Part shown: one piece after another, positions 3,514 to 59,904 of the stretch
How the letters are laid out: every line of letters begins with the position of its first letter
Position numbering within the stretch: position 1 is the first letter of the stretch
From: Malacoraja senta
Lineage: Eukaryota
Direction: 5' to 3'
DNA: 64,000 bases
Assembly: GCA_038087875.1 (NCBI GenBank)
Contig: CM075991.1
Coordinates: forward strand, 5,766,001-5,830,000
Notes under the pieces: generated by a model
The model's input: the letters and a program-made list of their open reading frames with translations, nothing else
Told to the model about the DNA's origin: nothing
Databases searched by the model: none
Program-made: the position numbers and the translations under genes

Positions 3514-4544
3514 TCAGGTATAGGGTGGCATTCAAATGTTCGCTACCCACCAAGTCCCCAATTTGATATCGAATCAACAACTGGAAAAAATGAGTCAAGA
3601 TATGCAATATGACTGTCACGTAAGATCGTTGTCTATAGCGAGCAAAATGGATCGGATATACCAAGATGCTCAGGGAACATATATTTTTGGGGTCGTTCTC
3701 CATGTCCCACGCCAGCTGAAGAATAAGACGTTTATCCTATACCAGTTGCATATTATTGGGCAGTATAAACAAGGAGCTTCGATAACAATGCACTATGCTC
3801 TTGAAAATAATGTGATAATTGATAAAGTATCAAGGGGCATCATAATGTACCGATGTCATCAAACAAGGAATAATGAGTAGGATGGAGTTTGGTTCATCAT
3901 TTACTCATTATAATAACGGTAAGCTTTCGATTGATGTAAAACCCAATGCTTCTTTTGCCAGTGTTGCCCATCAATGGGAAAATATGAGGTCGCTGCCTCT
4001 GCTAAGTGGCATTGAACGAGTGGTCGGAAATGTACTCTACGTTGGCATAATATTGTAAACCGGAGTCTTACGAGACAGATCACTATACGAGACAAGAAAT
4101 TAATGGTACCGTGGGTGGGAAAATCGATAACAGTAAGCTTCATTGTCGTACGGAATGACTCGGACGAGACATTAAGAAGATTTATCGCAAACATATTTCA
4201 ACCAATACCACACCTCCATGCTGATTGGAAGTTACTGACTAAGGAGGGTGAAATGGTTATACATGACTGGGATGAGAGCACTAAGCCTATTCGGATGCAT
4301 GGCAGAGAAGCAGAGGACATATTGGAGAAAATGGACTTGGTGGGAAAGAGCCTGGAACTGGGGACTGAATACTAACGTGCATCCTTTGATTAGTTGTTGT
4401 ACATAATCATTCATAGCGATTACTTTGTTCTTATTTTTGGTTTCACAGGATAAGTTGAAAACCCTGATGTTAGTTAGGCAGGTGGGAAGAGGGGATAACA
4501 GACAACAATTAGTTTCAGTAGGTGTATTAGTGGGTGCTGTTTAA
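3514..4544 (+). pseudogene. Env-like fusion glycoprotein, C-terminal part (frameshifted), from an LTR retroelement
   Basis: YIFGVVLHVP...TFILYQLHIIG, Cys pair, WTWWERAWNWGLNTNVHPLI, then hydrophobic SFIAITLFLFLVS. Paralogous to 42246-43627 and 49855-50885. Confidence 0.6.
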
Positions 4545-4553
4545 TATGGATTA

Positions 4554-10250: not shown

Positions 10251-10770
10251 ACACTGTATACAACATCTGCAGCTCTGCCCTCGTCAACATTTTTGGTCGC
10301 ATCTTAAAATATGAATATTTCCTATCCTGTGTAACCTATCCCTCAGAATGCTCTCTAGTAACTTTGCAACTGCAGATGTTAAGTTCACTGGCATGTAGTT
10401 CCCAGAATTTTCCATCTTTCCTTTCTTGAGAGCTAAACTCCCCACGTGATTTCTTTTAACAGCCGCTCCGTATTCCTCACAAGTGATTCCAATATCTGCT
10501 TGGATGTGTTGATATCATTGGAAGTCAGGAAATGCATCCATTGGTTAATTAGCATCGTCAGTGACTGTTGATCCTACGAATAATAACTTCCGAGTGGCAA
10601 GATGGTGGCGTGAATCATTCCTTTCAAGGAAGACGTATGTCTAACGTTACTTCCCAAACTAAGATCCTTATTGTTAAAGAAGGAACTGCAGATGCTGGAA
10701 AATCGAAGGTACACAAAAATGCTGGAGAAACTCAGCGGGTGCAGCAGCATCTATGGAGCGAAGGAAATAG

Positions 10771-10802
10771 GTAACGTTTCGGGCCGAAACCCTTCTTCAG
10801 AC
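10771..10802 (-). ncRNA. Minimal hammerhead ribozyme motif (inverted copy)
   Basis: Exact reverse complement of 11195-11226. Confidence 0.65.
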
Positions 10803-11194
10803 TGATAGGGGGTGGGGAGAAGAAAGGAAAAAAGGAAAAGGAGGAGGAGGAGCCCGAGGGCTGGGGGAGGGGAGGAGACAACCAGATGGCTGATGAAGGG
10901 GAGGGGACAGCCAGGGCTAGCAGAATTGGGAGAATTCAACGTTCAGGCCAACAGGATGTAGACTGCCCAAGCGGAATATGAGGTGCATTTCCTCCAATTT
11001 ACGGTGTTGCTCGCTGTGGCCATGGAGGAGAAAGTCTACATCCTGTTGGCCTGAACGTTGAATTCTCCCAATTCTGCTAGCCCTGGCTGTCCCCTCCCCT
11101 TCATCAGCCATCTGGTTGTCTCCTCCCCTCCCCCAGCCCTCGGGCTCCTCCTCCTCCTTTTCCTTTTTTCCTTTCTTCTCCCCACCCCCTATCA

Positions 11195-11226
11195 GTCTGA
11201 AGAAGGGTTTCGGCCCGAAACGTTAC
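11195..11226 (+). ncRNA. Minimal type I hammerhead ribozyme motif (Penelope-associated)
   Basis: gt-CUGAAGA-a-GGGU-uucg-GCCC-GAAA-C-GUU-ac: conserved core, UUCG-capped stem II, loopless palindromic stem III, very short stem I. Confidence 0.65.
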
Positions 11227-11707
11227 CTATTTCCTTCGCTCCATAGATGCTGCTGCACCCGCTGAGTTTCTCCAGCATTTTTGTGTACCTAAGATCCTTA
11301 TTGCTTGATTTGACTAAATCACACTGTGCAACTAATGCTATTAATGTTACATATTTGAAGTTCATTGTTCAGGTTAGAAATAATATTGTTCGCAGGAATA
11401 ATTACATTTAAGAAACCTTTAACCTTGTGTCACAGAAATAGAGTTTTCAACATTCCCTTTTATAAAATGTGACAAAAACATTAAAATTAACAGTTCGTGT
11501 AATCCCTCGAAGACAGAAATTCCTTGCGCAATGAAAAAAAACAGTTACGGTTGATGTTTGTTAAGTGGGCTGAGGGTGATGTGCCAGAGGTCACGCTAAT
11601 TGTCTCAGAGTAATGTCCTCTTTTGTATAAATCTGTGCTAAATCAATCACCACTACAGATGGACAGTTGGAAAGTTATGTGTGATTGTTCGCTGCTTCAC
11701 ATGGAAG

Positions 11708-13667
11708 ATGGAATATCCAGCAATTTACTGCATAGCCGCCACTTTCTACCCTGTACTTGTGGCGGTCAGTATTCCTGGTAAGATACTGGGACCAGTACGT
11801 TTAGTTTTGTACAGAAAAACTGCGCGGAAAGAGGCCCTTCGATCAACCGAGTCCGCGCCAACCAGCAATCCCCGCACACTGACGGCACACGCTACGGACA
11901 ATTTTCAATTGTACCATCCCAATCAGCCTACAAACCTGTGCATCTTTGGAGTGTGGGCGGATACCGGAGATCCCGGAGAAAACCCAATAAGATCGCGGGG
12001 AGAATGTACAAACTCCGTGCAGGATCAAACCCGGGTGGTTGGCGCTGTCAGGCAGCACATTTAATGCTGCGCACCGTGCCGTACTGCGTGCAGTTCTCCT
12101 TCCTTTCTGTATCTGCTACTCTGAAGAATAGTCGCTTTGATACCCAGCCCACATGCTACCTCAGCTGACGAGTGTCTTCGGAAGGTTCAGGCTTCAGAGT
12201 CTGTTTTATTTCTGGCATTTTTTTCTTGTTAATGTGTGGTTCTTTTGTCAATCAGGTCAGTTAATTTAGAGCTTATGTTTACATTTTTTCAGCATGTAAC
12301 CGTATTCATATTGTTTCTGGCGCATATTCTTCAAGCTCTGGGTCTGATTAATACAGACTTTTCCACCAAGAGTCAGCGAATGAGACATGTATACATGTCT
12401 GTCAACATGCCTGTTGAATTATCACAACTAGCTGAAAAACCTTCCGGGTTTTCGTTCTCTGATTCATTTGCCAGTTTTGATTTTAGGGCTGTGTTTCCAC
12501 TTGCTAGGTCTGATATGCCTGAGGAGGCAGTTCTTTCTGAGTTTAATGCTCTCTGATACGAGTTCATTTCGATTGACGCAACGACTCGAAATGACTGAGG
12601 TGATCAGTGCATCGTAGACATTAGGAGGCCGGCTGTAAATTGCTGCAAATTACCGACACATCTGCCTCTTCGATCAGCACCGCTCTAAGTATTTCTCCGA
12701 ACGGAAATTTAGTAAACTGGATCAGGTTTTTGCTCATTGAAACTAACGTTTTATTTTGTTTCTTGCAGTTAATTTAACGGCGATTGTGATCCTCTCCCGG
12801 GGAAAATATGGTCTCTCCAAATGCATCACCCGTTACCAAGTGGGAATGGCAACAGCGGATCTAATGGTAGTTGTCATTGTTGCTGCCATTGAACAAGTTA
12901 ATAACATATACGTTTACGCTAGTTCCTTGCTCATTACACCGGTTTGCGCTCTGACACTAATACTAAGGGTTGTAACAATCGACTGTTCCATTTGGTTCAC
13001 CGTCAGTTTCACTTGCGATCGTTTTATGGCGATCTGTTGTCAAAAGCTACGTGAGCGCTACAGCACCGAGAGAGCAGCCTGTGTGATTATGGTGACTGTG
13101 GCTGTCGTCAGCTGCGCCCGATCGTTTCCCTTTTACTTTGCCGTGGAGCCTTCTGTCATAATTGACAATGTGCCTTGGCGTTGCGTCTTCTCAGAGGAGT
13201 ACGCCACTTTGTCGGTATGGAAAGGTTATGATTTACTTGACAGCATCTTAGCACCGTTGTTACTTATCGGTTTAATCCTGTTGTTCAATGGGTTAACTTC
13301 CAGACATATCATAGCGGCCAATAGAGTTCGCAGACGACTTCGGAACAGCCATGAGAACCAGAAGGATACAGAGGTGGAGAACCGGAGGAAAGCGATGATT
13401 TTGCTCTTCGCTGTATCAGGCAATTTCATATTATTTTCGATACCCAATGTGGTTCATTCTCTGACATGGTAAACACGTAATTTCTTTTACACGGATAGAT
13501 ATTTGAGCAGCTCGGTATATATCCTGCAGCAGTTTGGATTTATGTTGCAGATTGGCAGTATGTGCACAAACACGTGTATCTATACACTGACACAGAGGAA
13601 ATTCAGGGACCAGCTGAAGAGTGGAGTGAAATATCTACTCACATTGAATGGCCAATTATGTAGTTGA
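11708..13667 (+). pseudogene. GPR139/GPR142-like GPCR pseudogene (exons 11708-11777, 12769-13667)
   Basis: GT-AG intron in phase 1 and 7TM motifs. CAA to TAA at 13470-13472 removes ECL3, TM7 and helix 8. The frame continues to the original TGA at 13665-13667. Confidence 0.88.
11798..12082 (-). mobile_element. tRNA-derived SINE (HE1/V-SINE-like) in the GPCR intron
   Basis: Minus strand starts cggcacggtgcgcagc...acccgggtttgatcctg (A/B-box-like), then gagtttgtacattctcccc core and a CR1-like tail. The same insertion occurs at about 38154-38440 and 58035-58319. Confidence 0.75.
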
Positions 13668-19806: not shown

Positions 19807-22800
19807 TTACGGTACTGCTGCATCACATGATTCCAAAAAGTCGATGAAAGGGGACCAACTCCTTAAGAATTGGTCATATTTATCTATTAGGCCGAGTCTC
19901 ATTTCTTCAAGGTGTGCTATGTCCGTCATATTCCTAATCAACATTTTAATAGTTGGTATAGCTGTATTTTTCCAAAATTTATGTATCAATTTATTTCCAA
20001 TTATTAACCCATAATTAAAGAATACTTTTTGGTCTTTGTTTAAATTGATATCTTCTAATATTATTCCAAATATAATCCATTCCATATTAGGTTCTATTCT
20101 TGACTTGAAGAGCTTTGTAAATATATCAAATATATCGCTCCAATTCAACTTTGTACATCCTACAAATGAATGTGTTATATTGGCATTTTGAAACAAACAT
20201 TTATCGCATCTGGGAGAGACATTTGGGTAAAATTCATTCAACCTCGTTTTTGAATAATATATTCTATGTAATAATTTAAATTGAATTAAATTATGTCTTG
20301 CATTAATGGAACAATTATGTGTATTCATCAGATACTTTTCCCATCTATCTTTCGGGATCTTTAACATTAGTTCATGTTCCCAATCTTCTCTTAGTGCCTC
20401 TGTTGAGGGTAATTCTCTATTTAATATACTATTATAAAAATATGACATTCGTTTTTCTGAATCAGCCTTAATATTCATTGCTTCTTCTAAAGGGTCTAAA
20501 AATATAGTTTGAAATCTATATATATATTTCTTCATAAAGTCACATATCTGTATATATTTAAAATATTGATTATCATTCAGTTTAAATTTTAATTTTAATT
20601 GTTGAAATGATAACAATTTGCCCAGTTCATACATATCTCCTACTTTCCTAATCCCCAATCTATCCCATTGTTTATATGTTTTGTCGATAAGAGATGGTTT
20701 GAATGCAGGATTATTCAGAATTGGGGTTAATACTGATAGGTTATTTAATTTCAAGGATAATTTTATTTGTTTCCAAATTCTTATTGTATTGTGAATAATT
20801 GGGTTCTTCTTATATATTATACTATTCAATTTTATTGGTGAGAACAAGATCGTTCCTATATCATACGGGAAACACTCCTCTTTTTCCATTCTTATCCACT
20901 CCGACGGGTGAGTTGAACTATCCAACCAGTACATTATGTTCTTAATATGCACTGCCCAGTAGTAATACGTAAAGTTAGGCAGTGATAAACCCCCAGCTTC
21001 TTTAGGTTTACACAAATGCTTTCGTTCAATTCTGTGTGCTCTATAATCCCATATAAAATTAGTGATATTAGAATCTAGTTTTTTGAAAAAATATTTCGGA
21101 ATATATATTGGGATCGCTTGAAACAAATATATTAATTGTGGTAAGAAAGTCATTTTTATAGCGTTAATTCTACCTATCAATGAGAGTGGGAGCGTTTTCC
21201 AAAATTTAATCATAACATTCAATTTATTTAATAGTGGCATAAAATTGGCGCTAAATAATGATTTGTGTCTTCTCGTAATTTGAATACCTAAATACTTGAA
21301 TTTTTCTGTTGCAATTTTGAAAGGGAATTTTAATAAGTGTCTCGCATCCTATGGTTTTAAAGACATGATTTCGCTTTTATTCCAATTTATTCTATATCCT
21401 GAAAAAGAACCAAATTCCTCAATTAGTGTTAATAAGGTGGGAATACTCGTTTGTGTATTAGTAATATATAAAAGAATATGATCAGCATATAATGAAATTT
21501 TATTCTTTGAGTCCTTGGTGTTATAACCATGAATATTCGGATGATTTCTAATCCTTTCAGCCAGCGGTTCTATCATAAGGGCAAATAGCAATGGTGATAA
21601 GGCACAACCCTGCCTATTACCCCTTGATAAATAAAAATTTGAAGATAACATATTGTTAGTTAATATTCTTGCCGTAGGTTTATCATAAAGTAGTTTAACC
21701 CATCTAATAAAATTTTCTCCCGTATTAAATTTTTCGAGTACCTTATATAAATACTGCCATTCTACCTGATCAAATGCCTTCTCTGCATCCAGCGTAACGA
21801 CTGAAATATCTTCAATGTCCTCTTTGTGAGAGTTCATTATATTGAAAAGCCTTCTCAAGTTATTAAATGGTTGTCTTTTGGGTATAAATCCCGTTTGATC
21901 CGGGTTTACCAATTTATTAATATAATTATTCAGTCTTCTTGCTAGAATCTTTGCTAAAATTTTCTGATCCGTATTTAAAAGTGATATAGCTCTGTAAGAA
22001 CCCGGTTCATCTAAATCTTTATCTTTTTTTGGTACAAGCGTTATTGTTGATTCTGCTAAAGTTTCTGGTAGTTTATTTTCGGTATAAGCCTGCGTGTATA
22101 AGTTGAGTAATCTTGGTACAAGTGACTCCTGAAAGCGTTTATAAAATTCATTACTAATACCATCTGGTCCTGGGGTCTTCCCAATTTTCAATTAGTTTAT
22201 TATTTGTTTTATTTCTTCACTAGTAATCCGTGCTCCTAATTCCTCTTGTTCTAAACTATCCAATTTAGGGAGGTTGCAAATATCTAAACAATTTGTAATT
22301 TTACTATCATCTGTATTTATTTTAGTTGTGTATAAATTATGATAAAATTGGGCAAACATTTTATTAATATCCTTTGGTAATGTTAGAAGCTCACCCTTAT
22401 CAGATTTAATTTTAGTGATAGTATTTGCCTTTTCTTGTTGCTTCAGTTGCCTCGCTAATAATTTATGTGGCTTATCCCCAAATTCGAAGTGTGCCTGTTT
22501 TGTAATTTGGAATAGCCTTATTACTCTACCCGATAATATTCTATTGAGTTTATATTTCAATAAGGTTATCTTATTATGTTTATCTATAGTTGGGTCACTT
22601 GCATTGTCCAGTTCTAGTAATTTTATTTCCTGTTCTACCCTCTGAAGTTCACTTTTATTTTCTTTATTTTGATAACTTTCATAAGAGATTATAACACTGC
22701 GAATGTATGCCTTAAAGGTTTCCCATAATAGCGATACAGAAATACCCGGCGTATCATTTGTCTCGAAAAAAAATGGTGTTTCTTCTTTTATATACTCATA

Positions 22801-23610
22801 ACCCTGCGGGTTATTTAATATTTGTGCGTTGAATTTCCAAAAAGATTTTATACCCGGCATTCCCTCGATTTTAAGTATAAAAGTCAGTGGTGAATGATCG
22901 GAAATAATACTATTATGATATGATGGTTTAATTGTATACGGGATTAATTTTGTATCCACTAAGAAATAGTCAATTCGTGAATAAGTTTTATGAGGCGACG
23001 AGTAAAACGAATATTCCCTTCCAATTGAGTTTGCTATTCTCCAAACGTCAGTTATGTTATTATTTTTTATATAAGTATTTAAAAATTCACAGGTCTTAGT
23101 TTTAACTAGACGCTTCCCTACCTTTATTGATTTATCTAAGTATGGATCTATAACACAATTAAAATCTCCCCCCATTATAATATTTTGATAATTATGCTCT
23201 GCAATTATATCTAGTATTTTCTTAAAAAATTGGGGATTATCAAAATTAGGCGCATAAATATTTATCATAGTTAATGGTGTATTGTAAATTTCTCCCGTGA
23301 CTATAACGTATCTTCCCTCTTTATCAGATATGGACTTCTTTAATTTAAAAGGTATACCTTTCCGAATTATAATGACCGTGCCTCTTGCTTTAGAAGTGAA
23401 TGAGGAGTAGTAGGTTTGACCTATCCAGTTTGCCCTTAATCTGATCTGCGTTTGTTGTTTCAAATGCGTTTCTTGTAGGAAAGCAATATCAATGTTTAAT
23501 GATTTTAATTGTGCCAGAATTTTACCCCTCTTAATTGGCTCATTCGCACCTCTAATGTTCCAACTACAAAAAGTGAGACCTCCGGTGTTTATTCGACTAT
23601 TATCTTGCAT
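19807..23610 (-). pseudogene. L1 ORF2p (APE-RT-Cys domain) in a single frame with two nonsense codons
   Basis: 1268 codons in one frame, with stops at 22192-22194 and 21349-21351. Catalytic YADD reads YADH. Confidence 0.9.
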
Positions 23611-24525
23611 TGGCTATTATTACCAGAATGTATAATTCATGTGATGCAGCCAAGTACCTCGAAATCCCGAGTCCAGGGTTGTCCTTCATAATTTCTGCAC
23701 TAGTTTTACATCTCCTGACACTATTAAACATAATTAAGGGAAAAAGAAAAACATAAAATGAAGTGTTCATAAAGATTGTTAAATCATACAACGCATAATA
23801 GTGAATAAACAAAAAAAGTGAATGTAAGTTATCAAAAAGGCGATATCTTACAAAAAAGCTACCTACGGTGGCTAAGATTTGTTTTAAATTGACCTCCGTC
23901 GATGGAATTATGCACTGGGCTTTGTCCCCCTAGTAAAATATCATCCAACATTAGTTGGTTTCCTCCACATAACCAAAATTATCATGTCAGGTCGATTAAT
24001 AGCCAAAAAATTTAAAATAAAATAGAAGAAAAGCTAGAAGATTTACAATAAAATAAAATAGAATTATTATCGTCATTAATCAGACTTTTCATTAGCCTGT
24101 ATGTTAGTTGATTCGTAATTAGTATTTAGAATATCTGTCTAACCTCCCCCATCCTTCCTACTATATAGTTAGTCATGTTAGTATAATACATTAAACCTTT
24201 AGGGTTAATTTAGTTTATTGCGTATATATAATTAATTAGTTAGTTAGTTATATGCTGTATATCTAAATAATAGATCATATAGTACTAAGACAAAGGCAGA
24301 CCAACAAGACTGTTATAAATTCAAAAAAGAACAGTCAATAAAACTCAGGGCTGAAAAACTTGGCGCAGAGCCTGCGACCTTGAACTTTCCATCTGTTGAG
24401 CCTCAGTTTTTCAATTCAAGATAAAGTTGGGACTCTGTTATTAAAAAACACATTCTGGCCAAATAAGTATGTCTGAAAACCGTCTAAACAAAGTAAAAAA
24501 CAAGTTCAGCCGGCGTAGTGTCTCG

Positions 24526-25641
24526 TTATTCTTTTCCTTGAATTTTATTTAAAATCTCCTGGGCATATTTGCAAGCTGAATCCGGATCCGTGAATGAACG
24601 TTGCTTAGCATTGTACGTAATTAACATTTTAGCAGGGTAGATAACTCCGTAACGAACTTCAGAATGTCCTTGTACGATACTGCTTGCACTTTTAAACTGG
24701 CGTATTTTTGCCAGTATTTCCCGAGGGTAGTCTCTGTAAAATCTAACAATATTATCAGCGAATGTAAGATTTTCTCCATAAGATATCTTGTTTAATAAAT
24801 TTTCCAAAGTCGAAATGTCTAAGAACTTTACAATAATTTGACGTGGTGGAGCATTCGCTCCTCTTTGGAAGCGACCAACACGATGAGCCACATCTATCTT
24901 TGGTTTTTCTGGCAGTTTGAAAACATCTTTACGTAAATTAGTGATAAAATCACCCATTTCAGAGCCGTGCTCTGCCCCCTCTTTAACTCCTATTATTCTC
25001 AAATTCTGCCTCCTTGACCTGGCTTCCAAATCTTGACATTTCTCATTCAGTTTATTCGTCAGCTCCCAATTCGCGTCGTGTTCTTTTTTCAAACCTGTTA
25101 TTTCCTGGCCCATCTGCTGCATTTCACCCTCCATCTCTTCCATCAATGTTTCAGTCTTTGTTAATTGCTTCAGCAGGGAGTCATGTTTATTGTTATAATC
25201 TCTCTGCATTCTTTCCAATTCCTTAGCAGTCCTCGACTCCAAATCTTTGAACTGCTGGTTCAGGGATACGTAAAGTTCCTTTAATTCTCCACAGCTAGTG
25301 TCAATTTTCTCAGAGAGATTATCCTCCATTGAAGAAAAATTGTTCTGCATTCTGGAATTCATTTTAGCAAATTGCTTCTGAAGATCTTTAGTAATGTCTT
25401 TAGTAATATTAACTCTTACCGATGCTTCCCAGCTTTTCATTTCTTTCTCCCTTTCTTTTAACTCTTTTGTTTCAGCACTTGCAGCCATTTCGACTGTTGG
25501 TTGTTGAGATTCTAGCTCCTCTTCCAAACTTTCAAATGTAGATTCAGGAGTGGTTTCAAGCTCATCCAGAGCTTTTTGGAGCTGGAGCTGGAGACTGATT
25601 GTAGTCTTCTTGGGTCCTCTCTGACCTCTTCCCTTTTTCAT
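24526..25641 (-). CDS. L1 ORF1p (coiled coil + RRM/CTD), open, 371 aa
   Basis: DLEARSRRQNLRIIGVKEG, IDVAHRV, PPRQIIVKF, FYRDY, YPAKM. Confidence 0.9.
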   Translation of the reverse strand: MKKGRGQRGPKKTTISLQLQLQKALDELETTPESTFESLEEELESQQPTVEMAASAETKELKEREKEMKSWEASVRVNITKDITKDLQKQFAKMNSRMQNNFSSMEDNLSEKIDTSCGELKELYVSLNQQFKDLESRTAKELERMQRDYNNKHDSLLKQLTKTETLMEEMEGEMQQMGQEITGLKKEHDANWELTNKLNEKCQDLEARSRRQNLRIIGVKEGAEHGSEMGDFITNLRKDVFKLPEKPKIDVAHRVGRFQRGANAPPRQIIVKFLDISTLENLLNKISYGENLTFADNIVRFYRDYPREILAKIRQFKSASSIVQGHSEVRYGVIYPAKMLITYNAKQRSFTDPDSACKYAQEILNKIQGKE

Positions 25642-25852
25642 CCGATTTTTACCGGTAAAATCGTTTTAAATCCCGATTCCACCGGCACCGTCTGATGACA
25701 TCAGTACCCACGAGGTTCAGCAATCCCGGTAAGAGTTTTTAAATCGATCCTGGCGTAGGAACCGAGTTTATACACGATTTGTCGGGAGCAGAGCTCTGTG
25801 CAGCTGTCTTACTGCTTCATAGCAGCCACCGGAAGTCCGTACAGCGCATTTC

Positions 25853-27988: not shown

Positions 27989-28583
27989 TATATGTGTTTT
28001 TATTCCTTTCCACTTCAACTGTTCTATTAAAAAGATATGGAATAATTCCCACGTGGGTGTTGAGCACCATTCCGCAATTTCCAACCCCGGAAGGTTCAAC
28101 GTCACCAGAATGTGACGGGAATGGGGAACAGAAGTTACCTTTTCTTCCTTCGGGGGCATCACGTACCCGTGACCATCTACCACCTTAACATCCTCATCAT
28201 AGAGGGTTGGGCGTACGGCAGTTGTGGCTCTGGATAAGGGAGTTGACCATCTATTTAACCACACCATGCCACCTTGATCTCCACATACTACAGTAATGGG
28301 GTCTTTGGAATTACTTCGATGTATAATAAACCGCATTTGACTCTCTCTCCTTTGATCCCCAGGGAGCCCCAAACACTACAATTCCAAAAATTCCACGCAT
28401 CATTTTTGCCATTCGCAACGCACCGCTTGCTCTGTCAATAATGTAGCTCAATTTGTGCAAGTGACTGTATTTACATCATTAACAACCGTACTCATTCCAT
28501 CAATTTTCAGTTAGGGTTTCTGATGATTAAATGTTGTGCCGTTGACTCTTAACTCCAGCCTGATGCATGCATTATTTGAATCC
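27989..28583 (-). pseudogene. Env-like glycoprotein, N-terminal part
   Basis: GYVMPPKEEKVTSVPHSRHILVTLNLP...WC..PTWELFHIFL. Its end (gaagtggaaaggaataaaaacacata) is homologous to the start of the 43627 fragment. Confidence 0.55.
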
Positions 28584-28630
28584 CTGTGGAAATAAAAACA
28601 AATCCAGCCCCTTGCCAGTTGTGTTAGTTC
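28584..28630 (-). promoter_or_regulatory. Candidate env splice acceptor
   Basis: Minus strand: actaac (branch-like) ... tttgtttttatttccacAG, immediately after the integrase stop. Confidence 0.45.
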
Positions 28631-28640
28631 AATTCTTCCT

Positions 28641-28975
28641 TTATGGTTTATACTGTTTCTACTGAGTTCAATGTTTCCGTTTAGCAGTCCTTTTCATGTC
28701 CATGAGAAAACATATTTCAACTTCCAATTTTACACCATGTAGCCCACCCACCAGGGCTGGAGACCAGCCCATTCCGGGAGAATTCTAACCATTACCTGAT
28801 TTCCGTTCTTCCACATTTTAGCTTAAATTCTTACTTTTCCTTTTCCTAATATTTGATCCTCTACTGAACAAATAACTCATAATTAAGTTGAAGACATTTA
28901 TTTACTAACTCTTGTATGTACCCAATATTTTTCCATTTCCATTGCAGGCATGTGCTCCTATTGTTTTTACATCTT
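28641..28975 (-). mobile_element. Integrase C-terminus of the env-bearing LTR element
   Basis: Hand translation across frameshifts: YIQELVNK..., GNQVMVRILP..GLQPWWVG (GPY/F-like), KRKH*TQ*KQYKP*. Confidence 0.6.
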
Positions 28976-38063: not shown

Positions 38064-40021
38064 ATGGAATATCCAGCAATTTACTACATAGCCGCCACTT
38101 TCTACCCTGTACTTGTGGCGGTTGGTATTCCTGGTAAGATACTGGGACGAGTAGGTTTAGTTTTGTACAGAAAAACTGCGCGGAAAGAGGCCCTTCGATC
38201 AACCGAGTCCGCGATAACCAGCAATTCACGCACACTGACGGCACACGCTAGCGACAATTTACAATTGTACCAAGCCAATCAGCCTACAAACCTGTGCATC
38301 TTTGGAGTGTGGGCGGATACCGGAGATCCCGGAGAAAAACCCAAGAAGATCACGGGGAGAATGTACAAACTCCGTGCAGGATCAAACCCGGGTGGTTAGC
38401 GCTGCCAGGCAGCACATTTAACGCTGCGCACCGTGCCGCCCTGCGTGCAGTTCTCCTTCCTTTCTGTATCTGCTGCACTGAAGAATAGTCGCTTTGATAC
38501 CCAGCCCAGATGCTGCCTCAGCTGACGAGTGTCTTCGGAAGGTTCAGGCTTCAGCGTCTGTTTTATTTCTGGCATTTTGTTCTTATTAATGTGTGGTTCT
38601 TTTGTCAATCAGGTCAGTTAATTTAGAGCTAATGTTTACATTTTTTCAGCATGTAACCGTATTCAAATTGGTTCTGGTGCATATTCTTCAAGCTCTGGGT
38701 CTCATTAATACAGACTTTTCCACCAAGAGTCAGCTAATGAGGAATGTATACATGTCTGTCAACATGCCTGTTGAATTATCACAACTAGCTGAAACACCTT
38801 CCGGGTTTTCGTTCTCTGATTCATTTGCCAGTTTTGATTTTATGACTGCGTTTCCACTTGCTACGTCTGATATGTCGGAGGAAGCAGTTCTCCCTGAGTC
38901 TAATGCTCTCTGATACAAGTTAATTTCGATTGACGCAACGACTCGAAATGACTGTGATCAGTGCGTCGTAGACTTTAGGAGGCCGACTGTAAATTGCTGC
39001 AAATTACCGACACATCTGCCTCTTCGATCAGCACCGCTCTAAGTATTTCTCCGAACGGAAATTTGGTAAACTGGATCAGGTATTTGCTCATTGAAACTAA
39101 CGTTTTTTTTGGTTTCTTGCAGTTAATTTAACGGCGATTGTGATCCTCTCCCGGGGAAAATGTGGTCTCTCCAAATGCATCACCCGTTACCTAGTGGGAA
39201 TGGCAACAGCGGATCTAATGGTAGTTGTCATTGTTGCTGCAATTGAACAAGTTAATTACATATACGTTTACGCTAGTTCCTTGTTCATTGCACCGGTTTG
39301 CGCTCTGAACCTAGTACTAAGGGTTGTAACAATCGACTGTTCTGTTTGGTTCACCGTCAGTTTCACTTGCGATCGTTTTATGGCGATCTGTTGTCAAAAG
39401 CTACGTGAGCGCTACAGCACCGAGAGGGCAGCGTGTGTGATTATGGTGACTGTGGCTGTCGTCAGCTGCGCCCGGTCCATTCCCTTTTACTTTGCCGTGG
39501 AGCCTTCTGTCATAATTGACAACGTGCCTTGGCGTTGCGCCTTCTCAAAGGAGTACGCCACTTTGTCGGTTTGGAAAGGCTATGAGTTACTTGACAGCAT
39601 CTTAGCACCGTTGTTACCGATCGGTTTAATCCTGTTGTTCAATGGGTTAACTTGCAGACATATCATAGCGGCCAATAGAGTTCGCAGACGACTTCGGAAC
39701 AGCCATGAGAACAAGAAGGATACAGAGGTGGAGAACCGGAGAAAATCGATGATTTTGCTCTTCGCTGTATCAGGCAATTTCATAATATTTTCGATACCCT
39801 ATGTGGTTCATTCTCTGACATGGCAAGCATATAATTTCTTTTACACTGATAGATATTTGAGCAGCCCGGTATATATCCTGCAGCAGTTTGGATTTATGTT
39901 GCAGATTGTCAGTATGTGCACAAACACGTGTATCTATACACTGACACAGAGGAAATTCAGGGACCAGCTGAAGAGTGGAGTGAAATATCTACTCACATTG
40001 AATGGCCGATTATGTAGTTGA
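38064..40021 (+). CDS. GPR139/GPR142-like class A GPCR, intact, 322 aa (exon 1 38064-38133, exon 2 39123-40021)
   Basis: CCTG|gtaag donor and ttcttgcag| acceptor, both in frame (969 nt). GIPVNLTAIVILSRGKCGLSKC, MATADL, SVWFTVSFTCDRF.AIC, PFYF, NRRKS, CTNTCIY..TQRKFR. AATAAA at 40057-40062. Confidence 0.92.
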
Positions 40022-41688: not shown

Positions 41689-41780
41689 CTTGACTAAGTG
41701 GGACCCGCTGGGTCCCATGTTCACACGGGAGGGCTGGTCCCCCAACGCAATATTTCACCTCTATCCACCAATTCCAATAT
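41689..41780 (-). mobile_element. Possible Helitron-type 3' terminus
   Basis: Hairpin tgggaccc-gct-gggtccca at 41699-41717, followed on the minus strand by cttagtCAAGt (CTAG-like). Confidence 0.35.
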
Positions 41781-41789
41781 TAATAAATG

Positions 41790-42215
41790 TCTCTGTAACC
41801 TTTTATCTTTGTCTTTCCCCAAAGCTAATTTTAAACTTACGTTTCTTGTTGTTTAGAAATCTCCCTCCCATATATCTAACATGTATTTACCATAAATGTC
41901 CAGATTGAGTCCGCTCGTAAAATAAGTCGTAAGTTAAACTTTGGGAGACTTGCCTGCTAAACACAATGACCAAAAGCACCTCTAATGCAAAATTGCAACG
42001 GATAAGAACGTAGACAGTACTAAAAAGGGCTATCATCCCCGACTGATAAGAATGCCCGCTCCTCAGCAGAATGTTTCATTTTTAGCTATTTTAACTACGT
42101 TCTATCTTGGCCATTTTCCCGTCATGCTCGCCAGTATGTGAGCTCCAGGGTTACTCAAACTATAACCTACTCATCTTCCTTATAATTCTCACAACTCTCT
42201 ACCTTTCCCCCTTTT
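41790..42215 (-). mobile_element. Polypurine tract and putative 3' LTR of the env-bearing element
   Basis: Minus strand aaaagggggaaaggtagagag (42215-42195), then TGTGAG at 42193. The far end of the LTR is not defined. Confidence 0.45.
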
Positions 42216-42245
42216 GGCAATTGGTCACACCCAATTAATCCATAT

Positions 42246-43627
42246 TTAACAGCACCCACTAATACACCTACTGAAAATAATTGTTGTCTGTTAACCCCTC
42301 TTCCCACCTGCCTAACTAACATCAGGGTTTTCAACATCCTGTGAAACTAAAACAAGAACAAAGTAATCACTATCAATAACTGTACAAAAACTAATCAAAC
42401 GGTGCACGTTAGTATTCAGTCCCCAGTTCCAGGCTCTTCCCCACCAAGTCCATTTTCTCAATATGTCCTCTGCTTCTCTGCCATGCATCCCAATAGGCTT
42501 AGTGCTCTCAGGCCAGTCAAGTATAACCATTTCACCCTCCTTGGTCAGTGTCTTCCAATCGGAATGGAAGTGTGGTATTTGTTGAAGTTGGTTTGCGATA
42601 AATCTTCTTAATGTCTCGTCCGAGTCATTCCGCACGACAAAGAAGCTTACTGTTATAGATTTTCCCACAGACAGTACCATTAATTTCTTGTCTCGGATAG
42701 CGATCTGTCTCGTTAAACCCCGGTTTACAATATTATGCCAACGTAGAGTACATTTCCGAGCAATCGTTCAATGCCACTTAGCAGAGGCAGCGACCTAATA
42801 TTTTCCCATTTATAGGCAACACTAGCAAAATAAGAATTAGGTTTTACCTCAATCGAAAGCTTACCATTATATAGTGAATAAATCCACAACCATCATACTC
42901 ATTATTTCTTATTTGATGACTCGGTCCAATATGATGCCCCTTGGTACTTTATCCATTATCACATTACTTTCAATAGCATTGTGCATTGTTATCGAAGCTC
43001 CTTGTTTATACTGCCCAATAATATGCAACTGGTGTAGGATAAATGTCTTATTCTTCAGCTGGCGTGGGACATGGAGAACAACTGCAAAAATAAATGTTTC
43101 CTGAGCATCTTGGTATATCCGATCCACTTGCCTCGCTATAGACAACGATCATACGTGACAGTCATATTGCATATGTTGACTCCAATTTTCCAGTTGATGA
43201 TTCGATATAAAATTGGGGACTTGGTGGGTAGATACCATTAGAATGCCACCATGCACCTGACACATTAGCCAGTTGGAATAAATACCACATACCTGTTCCC
43301 TACGCGCATTCTGAGAAATATTACTCAGTAGATTACTCAGTCTATCGTTCTGTTTATTGTGTCCTCATAGGGTTTAAGAATTTTATCTCCCGTAAGAAAG
43401 ATTTGCAATGCTAAGTGTCTCGGCATCTTTAAATCCCAGTACGGCCACTTTACACATCTTCTTTCAAACTGTTCTAATGTCACAATAAGTTCAGCTACAT
43501 CCATCACATTAACCCGTGGATAACTCTGTTGCACATCCAGCGCCCATTATCTCTATAAATTCCCTTCATGTTCTATGTGTTTTATTCATTTCAACTTCAC
43601 GTTCCTTTCCACTTCCACTTCCACTTC
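42246..43627 (-). pseudogene. Env-like fusion glycoprotein from the furin site to the TM/tail
   Basis: HRT*R/EFIEIMGAGCATELST(fs)VNVMDVAELIVTLEQ ... EQVCGIYSNWLMCQ ... HQVPNL ... FIFAVVLHVP ... WTWWGRAWNWGLNTNVH. Confidence 0.65.
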
Positions 43628-43639
43628 TCGAATCAATGA

Positions 43640-46340
43640 CAAGGAAAGATTGACAATGGACAACAGAGTAAGGTCAGGTCCAATTGCGAGCGGTGCGAGG
43701 GTGGAAGTGAATACGGAGGTCAAAGTACTGTGTATGAATGCGCGAAGTATATGGAATAAAGCGGACGAGTTTGAGGCTCAGTTAGAAACTGGCAAGTTTG
43801 ATGTTGTGGGAATTACTGAGACATGGCTGCAAGGGGGCCAGGGCTGGGAACTGAATATTCAATGGTATACCTCCTTACGAAAAGACAAACAGGTGGGCAG
43901 AGGGGGTGGGGTTGCCCTGTTGGTGAGGAATGGAATTCAGTCCCTTGCAAGGGTTGACATTGAAACACGAGATGTGGAGTCAGTATGGATAGAACTAAGG
44001 AATTGGAATGGTAAAAATACCCAAATGGGACTAATCTACAGGCCCCCAAACAGTAGCCTGGACATAGGGCGCAAGTTGAATCAGAAGTTAAAATTGGCAT
44101 GCAGCAAAAGTAATGCTGTGGTTGTTATGGGAGATTTCAACGTGCAGGTAGACTGGGAAAATCAGGTTGGTACTGGACCCCAAGAAGGGGACTTTGTAGA
44201 GTGCCTTCGTGATGGATTCATCGAACAGCTTGTATTGGAGCCTACCAAGGAAAAGGCAATCTGGATTTAGTGTTATGTAATGAACCGGATTTGATAAAGG
44301 ACCTCGAGGTTAATGAGCCATTTGGAGGCAGTGACCATAACATGGTCAGGTTTAATCCACAGTTGGAGAGGGCGAACAGTACATCGGAGGTGTCAGTGTT
44401 GCAGTTGTATAAAGGGGACTATGGGACCATGTGGGAGGAGCTGGCCAAAGTTGACTGGAAAGATACACTAGCAGGGATGACAGTGGAACAAAAATTGCAG
44501 GTGTTTCTAGGAATAATACAGAAGGTGCGGGATCAGTTCATTCCTAGGAGGAAGAATGATTCCAAGGGGAGAAAGGGACGACCATGGCTGATAACGGACG
44601 TCAGGGACAGTATAAAAATTAAAGCGAAGAAGTACAAGGTAGCAAAGATGAGCGGGAAGCAAGAGGATTGGGTAATGTTTAAAGAACAACAGAAGATAGC
44701 CAAAAAGGCAATACGGGGAGAAAAGATGAGGTACGAAGGGAAGCTAGCCAAGAATATAAAGCAGGATAGTAAAAGCTTCTTTAGGTATGTGAAGAGGAAA
44801 AAATTAGTTAAGACCAAAGTTGGACCCTTGAATACCGAAAAGGGTGAATTTATTATGGGGAACAAAGAAATGGCAGATGAGTTGAACAAGTACTTGGGAT
44901 CTGTCTTCACTAAGGAGGACACAAACAATCTTCCTGATTTAATAGTCGCCAGAGGGTCTGGGGTGACAGTGGAACTGAAGGAAATCCACATTAGGCAGAA
45001 AATGGTGTTGGATAGGCTGATGGGACTGAAGGCTGATAAATCCCCAGGGCCTGATAGTCAGCATCCCAGGGTACTTAAGGAAGTGGCTCTAGAAATCGTG
45101 GATGCATTGGTGATAATTGTCCAATGTTCTATAGACTCGGGATCAGTTCCTGTGGATTGGACGGTAGCTAATGTTATCCCACTTTTTAAGAAAGGCGGGA
45201 GAGAGAAAACGGGTAATTATAGACCACTTAGCCTGACATCGGTGGTGAGGAAGATGCTGGAGTCAATTATAAAAAATGAGATAGCCGCACATTTGGATAG
45301 CAGTAACAGGATCGGTCCGAGTCAGCATGGATTTGCGAATGGGAAATCATGCTTTACTATTCTTCTGGAATTTTTTGAAGATGTAACGAGGAAAATGGAC
45401 AATGGAGAGCCAGTGGATGTAGTGTACCTGGACTTTCCGAAAGCATTTGATTAGGTCCCACATAGGAGATTCAATTATGGCACATGGTATTGTGGGTAGA
45501 GTGTTGACATGGGTAGGGAAGTGATTAGCAGACAGGAAACAAAGAGTAGGGATTAACTGGTCCCTTTCAGAATGGCAGGCAGTGACAAGTGGGGTACCAC
45601 AAAGCTCTGTACTGGGACCGAGGCTATTTACAATATACATCAATGATTTGGATGAAGGAATTCAAAGTAACATTAGCAAATTTGCAGATGACACAAAGCT
45701 GGGTGGCAGTGTGAAGGGTGGGGAGGATTTTATGAGAATGCAGGGTGACCTGGGCAGGTTGGGAGAGTGGGCAGATGCATGGCAGATGAAGTTTAATGCG
45801 GATAAATGTGAGGTTATCCACTTTGGTAGCAAAAACAGGAAGACAGATTACTATCTAAATGGTGTCAAGTTGGGAAAAGGGGAAGTACAACGGGATCTGA
45901 GGGTCCTTTTATATCAGTCTATGAAAGTAAGCATGCAGTTACAGCAGGCAGTGAAGAAAGCAAATGGCATGTTGGCCTTTATAACAGGAGGAATCGAATA
46001 TAGGAGCAAAGAGGTCCGTCTGCAGTTGTACTGAGCCCTAGTGAGACCACATCTGGAGTATTGTGTGCAGTTTTGGTCCCCAATTTGAGGAAGTACATTC
46101 TTGCTATTGAGGGTGTGCAGCGTAGGATTACAAGATAAATTCCCGGGATGGCGGGACTGTCATATGCTGAGAGAATGGAGCAGCTGGGCTTGTGCACTAT
46201 GGAGGATGTGCACACTGAGAAGGATGAGAGGGTATCTCATTGAAACATATAAGATTGTTAAGGGCTTGGACAAACTAGAGGCAGAAACATGTTCCCGATG
46301 TTGAGGAAGTCCAGAACCAGGGGCCACAGTTTAAGAATAA
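43640..46340 (+). mobile_element. CR1 LINE ORF2 (APE+RT), degenerate, 3'-truncated
   Basis: LCMNARS, GITETW, GDFN, SDHN, KFADDTKL. It stops at cacagtttaagaataag with no 3' tail. Confidence 0.93.
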
Positions 46341-49854: not shown

Positions 49855-50885
49855 TCAGGTATAGGGTGGCATTCAAATGTTCGCTACCCACCAAGTCCCC
49901 AATTTGATATCGAATCAACAACTGGAAAAAATGAGTCAAGATATGCAATATGACTGTCACGTAAGATCGTTGTCTATAGCGAGCAAAATGGATCGGATAT
50001 ACCAAGATGCTCAGGGAACATATATTTTTGGGGTCGTTCTCCATGTCCCACGCCAGCTGAAGAATAAGACGTTTATCCTATACCAGTTGCATATTATTGG
50101 GCAGTATAAACAAGGAGCTTCGATAACAATGCACTATGCTCTTGAAAATAATGTGATAATTGATAAAGTATCAAGGGGCATCATAATGTACCGATGTCAT
50201 CAAACAAGGAATAATGAGTAGGATGGAGTTTGGTTCATCATTTACTCATTATAATAACGGTAAGCTTTCGATTGATGTAAAACCTAATGCTTCTTTTGCT
50301 AGTGTTGCCCATAAATGGGAAAATATGAGGTCGCTGCCTCTGCTAAGTGGCATTGAACGAGTGGTCGGAAATGTACTCTACGTTGGCATAATATTGTAAA
50401 CCGGAGTTTTACGAGACAGATCACTATACGAGACAAGAAATTAATGGTACCGTGGGTGGGAAAATCGATAACAGTAAGCTTCATTGTCGTACGGAATGAC
50501 TCGGACGAGACATTAAGAAGATTTATCGCAAACAAATTTCAACCAATACCACACCTCCATGCTGATTGGAAGTTACTGACTAAGGAGGGTGAAATGGTTA
50601 TACATGACTGGGATGAGAGCACTAAGCCTATTCGGATGCATGGCAGAGAAGCAGAAGACATATTGGAGAAAATGGACTTGGTGGGAAAGAGCCTGGAACT
50701 GGGGACTGAATACTAACGTGCATCCTTTGATTAGTTGTTGTACATAATCATTCATAGTGATTACTTTGTTCTTATTTTTGGTTTCACAGGATAAGTTGAA
50801 AACCCTGATGTTAGTTAGGCAGGTGGGAAGAGGGGATAACAGACAACAATTAGTTTCAGTAGGTGTATTAGTGGGTGCTGTTTAA
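49855..50885 (+). pseudogene. Env-like C-terminal part (copy B)
   Basis: Duplicate of 3514-4544. Confidence 0.6.
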
Positions 50886-50894
50886 TATGGATTA

Positions 50895-57944: not shown

Positions 57945-59904
57945 ATGGAATATCCAGCAATTTACTGTATAGCCGCCACTTTCTACCCTGTACTTGTGGC
58001 GGTCAGTATTCCTGGTAAGATACTGGGACCAGTACGTTTAGTTTTGTACAGAAAAACTGCGCGGAAAGAGGCCCTTCGATCAACCGAGTCCGCGCCAACC
58101 AGCAATCCCCGCACACTGACGGCACACGCTACGGACAATTTTCAATTGTACCAACCCAATCAGCCTACAAACCTGTGCATCTTTGGAGTGTGGGCGGATA
58201 CCGGAGATCCCGGAGAAAACCCAATAAGATCGCGGGGAGAATGTACAAACTCCGTGCAGGATCAAACCCGGGTGGTTGGCGCTGTCAGGCAGCACATTTA
58301 ATGCTGCGCACCGTGCCGTACTGCGTGCAGTTCTCCTTCCTTTCTGTATCTGCTGCTCTGAAGTATAGTCGCTTTGATACCCAGCCCACATGCTACCTCA
58401 GCTGACGAGTGTCTTCGGAAGGTTCAGGCTTCAGAGTCTGTTTTATTTCTGGCATTTTTTTCTTGTTAATGTGTGGTTCTTTTGTCAATCAGGTCAGTTA
58501 ATTTAGAGCTTATGTTTACATTTTTTCAGCATGTAACCGTATTCATATTGTTTCTGGCGCATATTCTTCAAGCTCTGGGTCTGATTAATACAGACTTTTC
58601 CACCAAGAGTCAGCGAATGAGACATGTATACATGTCTGTCAACATGCCTGTTGAATTATCACAACTAGCTGAAAAACCTTCCGGGTTTTCGTTCTCTGAT
58701 TCATTTGCCAGTTTTGATTTTAGGGCTGTGTTTCCACTTGCTGGGTCTGATATGCCTGAGGAGGCAGTTCTCCCTGAGTTTAATGCTCTGTGATACGAGT
58801 TCATTTCGATTGACGCAACGACTCGAAATGACTGAGGTGATCAGTGCATCGTAGACATTAGGAGGCCGGCTGTAAATTGCTGCAAATTACCGACACATCT
58901 GCCCCTTCGATCAGCACCGCTCTAAGTATTTCTCCGAACGGAAATTTAGTAAACTGGATCAGGTTTTGGCTCATTGAAACTAACGTTTTATTTTGTTTCT
59001 TGCAGTTAATTTAACGGCGATTGTGATCCTCTCCCGGGGAAAATATGGTCTCTCCAAATGCATCACCCGTTACCAAGTGGGAATGGCAACAGCGGATCTA
59101 ATGGTAGTTGTCATTGTTGCTGCCATTGAACAAGTTAATAACATATACGTTTACGCTAGTTCCTTGCTCATTACACCGGTTTGCGCTCTGACACTAATAC
59201 TAAGGGTTGTAACAATCGACTGTTCCATTTGGTTCACCGTCAGTTTCACTTGTGATCGTATTATGGCGATCTGTTGTCAAAAGCCACGTGAGCGCTACAG
59301 CACCGAGAGAGCAGCGTGTGTGATTATGGTGACTGTGGCTGTCGTGAGCTGCGCCCGATCGTTTCCCTTTTACTTTGCCGTGGAGCCTTCTGTCATAATT
59401 GACAATGTGCCTTGGCGTTGCGTCTTCTCAGAGGAGTACGCCACTTTGTCGGTATGGAAAGGTTATGATTTACTTGACAGCATCTTAGCACCGTTGTTAC
59501 TTATCGGTTTAATCCTGTTGTTCAATGGGTTAACTTCCAGACATATCATAGCGGCCAATAGAGTTCGCAGACGACTTCGGAACAGCCATGAGAACCAGAA
59601 GGATACAGAGGTGGAGAACCGGAGGAAATCGATGATTTTGTTCTTCGCTGTAGCAGGCAATTTCATATTATTTTCGATACCCAATGTGGTTCATTCTCTG
59701 ACATGGTAAACACGTAATTTCTTTTACACGGATAGATATTTGAGCAGCTCGGTATATATCCTGCAGCAGTTTGGATTTATGTTGCAGATTGTCAGTATGT
59801 GCACAAACACGTGTATCTATACACTGACACAGAGGAAATTCAGGGACCAGCTGAAGAGTGGAGTGAAATATCTACTCACATTGAATGGCCAATTATGTAG
59901 TTGA
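57945..59904 (+). pseudogene. GPR139-like GPCR pseudogene, copy B (exons 57945-58014, 59006-59904)
   Basis: Same TAA at 59707-59709. Additional changes DRF to DRI and KLR to KPR. Confidence 0.88.

Follow-up and report, generated by a model that had tools for sequence, protein, structure and literature searches.

Lokiretroviruses (lokiorterviruses) possess an envelope protein (Env) that, according to Wang and Han, resembles the fusion protein F of the Mononegavirales and not canonical retroviral Env; the same authors group their ribonuclease H (RNase H) with that of foamy viruses and prefer two independent gains of env (PMC7947760; PMC9040795). The first of these papers reports a match of loki Env to PF00523 at E 2.2e-7 and, in 2020, lokiretroviruses in 0 of 6 chondrichthyan genomes (PMC7947760). 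Endogenous retroviruses (ERVs) related to snakehead retrovirus (SnRV; clade Huo, PMC6001957) also occur in cartilaginous fish, with CmiERV lineage I in the elephant shark (PMC4422223). Here, we analyse a window of 64,000 nucleotides from the cartilaginous fish Malacoraja senta (GCA_038087875.1, contig CM075991.1, positions 5,766,001 to 5,830,000; coordinates below count from the first letter of the window). An earlier note, made from the letters alone, had read its minus strand near 43 kb as the relic of a retroelement with a paramyxo/pneumovirus-F-style, lokiretrovirus-like env. The locus is probably best explained as a defective ERV with a likely F-type env and canonical-like pol remnants, which would be related to SnRV rather than to the loki lineage.

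The minus strand from 43587 to 42216 carries the 3' portion of an env gene in decayed form. The end of the surface subunit and a basic, furin-type cleavage site (43563..43587, minus strand) are interrupted by a stop codon and read H-R-T-stop-R at 43574-43563. The RTRR site suspected behind the stop is real, since the copy L077 reads RTRR and the paralogous copies L036 and L037 (93-95% identity over the stretch) read RTRR followed by [IL]IEIMGAG in a single frame. After the site the window reads EFIEIMGAGCATELST and, following a frame change, VNVMDVAEL, as quoted before; this frameshifted region (43340..43562, minus strand) would comprise the fusion peptide and the first heptad-repeat region, for which L026/L021 give a weak colinear match to the env of a younger element. 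The env core (42912..43340, minus strand) contains one stop and consists of a Cys-containing helix, a (Q)VP..ISN motif and beta-rich strands. VCGIYSNWLM..HQVPN was correctly quoted up to its last residue, the window reading QVPNF and a copy at 3.5 kb QVPNL. FIFAVVLHVP..TFILHQLHIIG and WTWWGRAWNWG are both found on the minus strand. A Cys-containing beta region and stem (42450..42911, minus strand), with several frame changes, precede a Trp-rich membrane-proximal stretch and a transmembrane segment (42350..42450, minus strand). The strongly hydrophobic segment (about 42394-42350, Kyte-Doolittle 2.7) follows the Trp-rich stretch as claimed, in a different frame; in the copy L021 the transmembrane segment (Kyte-Doolittle 3.1) is in frame. 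Downstream lie a polypurine tract (PPT; 42204..42215, minus strand) and a piece of a 3' long terminal repeat (LTR; 41775..42203, minus strand) that covers the 5' 430 or so of its roughly 700 bases and matches both LTRs of the copy L024/L025 at 79-85%. Other copies read TG after the tract; the TG at 42193 taken for the LTR start lies about 10 bases inside the LTR, which begins at about 42203.

About 405 codons lie between the cleavage site and the far end of the membrane anchor, in agreement with the more than 400 noted before. The layout of gamma-type Env, with a short transmembrane subunit, an immunosuppressive domain (ISD) and CX6CC, is not found in this subunit of about 400 codons, and the window env gave no TLV_coat match, while a control env (L101) matches PF00429. 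The length had been taken as a mark of the F and baculovirus-F layout; it is not unique to that layout, SnRV Env having 509 residues after its basic site (L129:6131-9532). By eye, this SnRV subunit has an F-like motif order, and its score is not significant.

For comparison we used the open env (785 residues) of a younger element of the same genome, L128. The core frame of the window scored 79 against it and none of 300 shuffles reached this value (best shuffle 45), so the reading is not due to chance. A profile of the env core (A1) gave 28.6 bits (E 3e-10 among six envs) and fell below zero on the five others, namely SnRV, three epsilon-like and one gamma-type; hhalign of core against younger env gave E 3e-4 at probability 40. 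For the Cys and stem region correspondence was seen by eye, with 6.7 bits for its profile (A2); fusion peptide and heptad region, Cys region and stem with anchor were each not significant alone against the open env in the shuffle test. Judged by sequence, the window env is homologous to the open env of the younger element. Concerning the nature of that env, the L128 ectodomain retrieved Fusion_gly F0 clusters from the ESM Atlas at 0.91 (196/256 features), Baculo_F coming second, and its 10 best family matches all belong to one family or clan. The same motifs stand, by eye, in the same order in the Env of Loki-Str (a helix followed by [IV]P, a G-hydrophobic-P strand, LxxVxNVG, a Cys pair), and the loki Env layout of RxxR site, fusion peptide, coiled coil and transmembrane segment is present here, the similarity to F being indirect. 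The env probably encoded an F-type class I fusion protein.

Several results weigh against this assignment. Atlas values of 0.9 also come up with shuffled proteins, 4-10 times per 100, and a 118-residue frame of the window itself gave no usable match there. Pfam returned nothing relevant for the window pieces or the envs of L128 and L103, with no match to PF00523 or PF12259, and a PDB search with the env was negative. The fold test proposed in the earlier note failed, both AlphaFold env models being of low confidence (predicted local distance difference test, pLDDT, 36 and 30), the Foldseek lists noise and the DI-DIII fold without support. Nor is there similarity to SnRV Env (-1.8 bits; 23 of 136 reported shuffles, of 300, at or above). 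An apparent match of a further profile (A9) to SnRV Env at probability 100 was rejected as circular: A9 contains the snakehead sequence, and the signal disappeared without it. A genome search with PF00523 found no match anywhere, the controls were equally silent, and hence it is uninformative. Every direct test for F having failed, the env might be a class I fusion protein of a separate kind, with a long subunit and F-like in layout only, as the Envs of walleye and snakehead viruses likewise have long subunits and walleye dermal sarcoma virus (WDSV) is scored in the Viro3D source data as having no match of the respiratory syncytial virus F (RSV-F) type; the Atlas result for the L128 homolog and the ordered motif match to loki Env, itself reported to match PF00523, make this improbable. 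The F-type assignment, a chain of two links of which the second is moderate, is likely rather than firmly established because neither Pfam nor the PDB nor the two AlphaFold models supported it directly; the paramyxo/pneumovirus-F-style env of the earlier note is upheld as probable.

The layout of the family was assembled across dispersed copies in the 1.94 Gb genome and reads LTR, tRNA-Ser primer site, gag stub, RT thumb and tether (RT, reverse transcriptase), RNase H, integrase, env, PPT and LTR. A DNA search with the env relic gave 42 matches from the best 40 of 84 candidates; among the matches listed, 8 full-length ones at about 100% belong to a tandem array, and another 9, at 70-85%, are on other contigs. 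Further protein and DNA searches gave at least 65, at least 43 and at least 39 matches. A protein search with the window env core found none (27 candidates). In L076/L077 the order is tether, RNase H, integrase, env, LTR. In L024/L025 two LTRs of about 700 bases, differing by 4.8% (Kimura two-parameter distance, 691 sites), occur together with a primer site and, seen by eye at this one locus, a probable target duplication of 5 bp. Four distinct loci carry the primer site, which agrees with the 3' end of a tRNA-Ser gene of the genome at 18/18 or nearly all positions. Paired LTRs, primer binding site (PBS), PPT and, by eye at one locus, target-site duplication are thus all present, as in an integrated LTR retrovirus. 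The claim of a relic of an enveloped LTR retroelement stands, its copies being linked to pol and LTRs, and LTR, PBS and pol linkage lead us to reject an ordinary host gene. The genome search suggested before did yield dispersed copies with pol; env is broken in every family copy examined.

No family-type RT palm was detected with P0007, the relative with the closest pol, in any of 45 loci, and the family therefore looks non-autonomous; since the 45 loci include neighbouring stretches and duplicates, independent insertions are fewer. Family pol begins at residue 379 or later at these loci, unrelated Gypsy/DIRS-like RT at 23-35% occurs in 5 of them, and a gag stub is kept in 2. The stretch across the deletion aligns as a single piece in L076, L077, L090, L093 and L095. 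A helper element was not found, the best genome RT matches to P0003 reaching 34-42% (best 68 of 17,640 candidates). Among defective ERVs, a family that keeps env without gag and RT is unusual.

Among named homologs the closest are those of Rhinoraja, Pristiophorus and Heterodontus, in keeping with a shark or ray host. Family profiles scored 142 (tether), 90 (RNase H) and 167 bits (integrase) on P0007, with best other values of 61, 53 and 104 bits, and the tether profile gave 127 bits on P0004 (Heterodontus francisci). The pol comparison comprised 20 rows, 10 of them picked from 34 loci; L129 was identified as SnRV by identity with the published SnRV RT row, the other reference labels being putative, assigned from motifs and genome lengths. 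On the 9 gamma/epsilon pol rows the tether profile scored 40-61 bits, except for a single row with 25, and on all 8 of them that include RNase H the profile of this domain gave 38-53 bits. On foamy virus the two gave at most -1.3 and 1.5 bits, and a Gypsy row gave 1.8 bits with the tether. SnRV scored 28, 32 and 54 bits for tether, RNase H and integrase; integrase, which is grouped with CGIN1 in lokiretroviruses, gives profile scores that do not separate classes. In the PDB the tether profile matched RT of one type only (E 6e-14), with no Ty3 or foamy RT, and at E<0.3 the RNase H profile did the same; by their names we take these entries to be RT of the murine leukaemia virus (MLV) or xenotropic MLV-related virus (XMRV) type. 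The pair of tether and RNase H is common to all retroviruses, and Pfam found it on L076 as a dual RNase H (RT_RNaseH_2 E 0.017, RNase_H E 2e-5). The family RNase H is of the YTDSRYAF, that is YTDS, non-foamy type.

These data bear on whether the locus is a true lokiretrovirus relic that would extend the group to cartilaginous fishes. The F-like layout and the motif match to Loki-Str Env fit such an origin, as do the dual RNase H, 94.5 integrase bits on the pol of the loki-like L103 and an RT tree built without any loki RT. The RNase H, which in lokiretroviruses falls in group I with foamy viruses, here scores at most 1.5 bits on foamy virus and 2.9 on L103, and the tether, closest to Ty3 RNase H in the loki definition, finds neither Ty3 nor foamy RT in the PDB. 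Lokiretroviral RT forms a clade sister to canonical retroviruses. The relatives P0007 and P0004 have LDIANGFW / LPQGFHNSP-type RT motifs, like the snakehead row, and not the PFG of Loki-Str (CPFGYANSP) and Loki-Xla (LPFGY) given in the supplement of PMC7947760. Together with the six negative chondrichthyan genomes mentioned above, this makes a loki relic very unlikely, and "lokiretrovirus-like" is not supported beyond env.

The RT of P0007 is 41% identical to that of SnRV and 36-39% to epsilon-like rows. In the RT tree P0007 and P0004 pair at 99/99 and stand outside the gamma+epsilon clade (98/97), beside L103 and SnRV in no resolved order. Against a link to SnRV stand the higher tether and RNase H scores on gamma/epsilon rows (up to 61 and 53 bits) than on SnRV, a placement borrowed from relatives that were compared through their pol, and the tree itself, which is without loki, ERV-L and HERV-S rows, has weak deep forks (84/81) and rests on one long Gypsy branch. 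Foamy virus even falls closer to gamma/epsilon than SnRV does, where long branches meet; the missing rows, the long branches and the foamy position are reasons not to trust the deep order. A class I, epsilon-like ERV may have acquired an F-type env through recombination with a donor such as the loki-like L103 lineage: the best tether and RNase H scores among named references are those on gamma/epsilon, this genome is rich in epsilon-like families, and env/pol swaps are described as frequent in anamniote ERVs. We regard such a capture as unlikely, since P0007 and P0004 outscore each class I row about twofold and their RT lies outside the gamma+epsilon clade; also, the tRNA-Ser primer and 5-bp duplication presumably fit class III, as in HERV-S. 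On sequence evidence the pol remnants resemble canonical retroviruses and are likely SnRV-related (class III, clade Huo-like).

For the preferred reading, a defective SnRV-related ERV with an F-type env, we propose the following history, drawing on what is established for class I fusion proteins. The Env precursor would have been cut by a furin-type protease into a surface subunit of about 215 residues and an anchored subunit of about 400, and the latter would have fused membranes as F of paramyxo- and pneumoviruses does, the fusion peptide moving out and the heptads zipping up. A derivative lacking most of gag, protease and the RT palm, and retaining all cis signals, may have been copied in trans by a helper. 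At some loci, and this speaks against helper mobilisation there, the shared deletion may stem from later duplication. The copies would then have decayed, and the window copy would have been cut by a CR1 long interspersed nuclear element (LINE) and passively multiplied with a tandem array of G-protein-coupled receptor (GPCR)-like genes.

Family copies differ at 21-27% of env sites, and ratios of third- to first/second-position divergence are 0.98-1.14 in three env pieces, all intervals spanning 1, like those of LTR and leader controls. The copies have decayed neutrally. Values of dN/dS of 0.38-0.65 were rejected as an artefact of filtering for well-aligned codons, the unfiltered test giving no codon signal. 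The insertion date is loose, because the single LTR pair gives about 11 My at a rate of 2.2e-9 or about 110 My at 2.2e-10, the latter used by Han 2015 (PMC4422223). In contigs from 4 of 4 runs of four other organisms every one of the 30 bins was covered at a likeness of at least 80%, and loose ends were numerous where the LTR begins, so the family is shared among organisms and its LTR is frequent. The locus is dead and there is no sign of host use.

Elsewhere in the window, the 5' part of env, with a putative signal peptide and a surface subunit of about 215 codons, lies at 27991..28640 (minus strand); it is not adjacent to the 43 kb part here, and in the dispersed copy L021 it runs directly into it. 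No immunoglobulin (Ig)-type motif was seen by eye in this surface subunit. A surface piece (28171-28016) scored 52 against the open env of another element (1 of 300 shuffles). The 28 kb piece begins with an integrase C-terminal remnant of the same family (28602..28941, minus strand), scoring 61 and 57 against the integrase C-terminus of P0007 with none of 300 shuffles reaching either. A second env fragment (3514..4553, plus strand) is 90% identical to 43260-42236, and repeat comparison revealed its tandem-array duplicate at 49855..50894 (plus strand). On its 5' side the 43 kb relic is truncated by a LINE that is not part of the element (43626..46236, end approximate, plus strand), with endonuclease and RT open reading frames (ORFs), whose motifs we take to indicate the CR1 type.

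The window is organised in a tandem unit of about 46 kb with GPCR-like genes, LINEs and LTR/DIRS-like debris, classes that we assigned from ORF motifs. GPCR-like ORFs lie at 12747-13472, 39101-40021 and 58984-59709, repeated by the array, which extends on C15 and C1302 with units about 99% identical. Further features are a near-complete L1/Tx1-like LINE (19807-25665, minus strand) with ORF1 and ORF2 interrupted by stops only, DIRS-like remnants at 5.0-6.1 kb and 9.4-10.0 kb, a Gypsy-like remnant at 31.9-34.1 kb and an inverted repeat (10702-11295) with 263-base arms, 99% complementary, and 68 bases between them.

The younger element is multi-copy (G000:C1:148.86 Mb, C2:182.27 Mb, C8:7.0 Mb, C23:0.39 Mb and many more), has open pol of about 1400 residues, mixes loki and canonical features and may be the better test case. 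Its member L103 was rejected as a plain lokiretrovirus, its RT reading LPQG. A regular expression for the Ig-type motif (C..W..D/N-x-G/T-x-Y-x-C) matched near the N-terminus of both proteins, at residues 104-170 of the L128 env and 43-92 of the SnRV env ORF, and Pfam gave no support; should the motif be real, the Ig-type domain would occur in a published virus too. A sawshark "Niban 1-like" protein (P0002) starts with about 260 residues 68% identical to the younger env and is either a mis-joined gene model or a host-captured env exon. The epsilon-like families L101, L174, L175, L182 and L184 have open pol and gamma-type env (ISD motif); in L101, protease and RT are separated by an insert whose two HxT motifs are presumably reminiscent of a 2H phosphodiesterase.

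More tentatively, and with the balance against it, the window family, P0007 and P0004 may form a deep elasmobranch lineage near the root of canonical retroviruses that shares the F-type Env of lokiretroviruses. If so, retroviruses would have started with an F-type Env, and gamma- and beta-type Env would be later replacements, contrary to the published preference for independent gains. The combination of a loki-related env with a pol of canonical tether and RNase H, taken with the structural link published for foamy Env and F, makes a single ancient F-type Env testable; it would extend the host range of F-type retroviral Env to cartilaginous fish, and the pairing would bear on the origin of retroviral envelopes. 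We found no published description of F-type env on canonical-type pol other than foamy virus, though subscription papers and Repbase/Dfam, outside our scope, may hold one.

Compared with known systems, the family resembles lokiretroviruses as a vertebrate LTR element with tether and RNase H, and resembles their Env by the basic site, small-residue fusion peptide, heptads, long membrane-anchored subunit and, by eye, motifs. It differs in its gamma/epsilon-type tether and RNase H, the LPQG of its relatives' RT and a surface subunit about twice as long; some lokiretroviruses have an SMC-like coiled coil before gag, whereas gag is a stub here. With SnRV and related ERVs it shares its nearest relatives' RT motifs, the YTDS-type RNase H and a long post-cleavage Env subunit, yet tether and RNase H reach only the 28 and 32 bits given above, the RT tree does not join them and the family is gag/RT-deleted. 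With F of paramyxo- and pneumoviruses, baculovirus F, errantivirus F-type Env and foamy Env (PMC13524379, PMC11468914) the family would share a class I fusion architecture, and the Atlas neighbours of L128 are PF00523 and PF12259 clusters; unlike in those systems, the family pol is retroviral with dual RNase H, neither Gypsy-type nor foamy-type, and its env has no Pfam or structural match. The younger element (L103, L105, L108-L112, L128) has a homologous env core and surface-subunit end (22-27% identity) and the LPQGFHNSP of P0007; it differs in a coiled-coil gag, open pol frames, a tether and RNase H judged by eye to be loki/foamy-like and an Env with an Ig-type motif, none of which the window family has. 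Relative to these systems the family likely joins a canonical-type pol to an F-type env.
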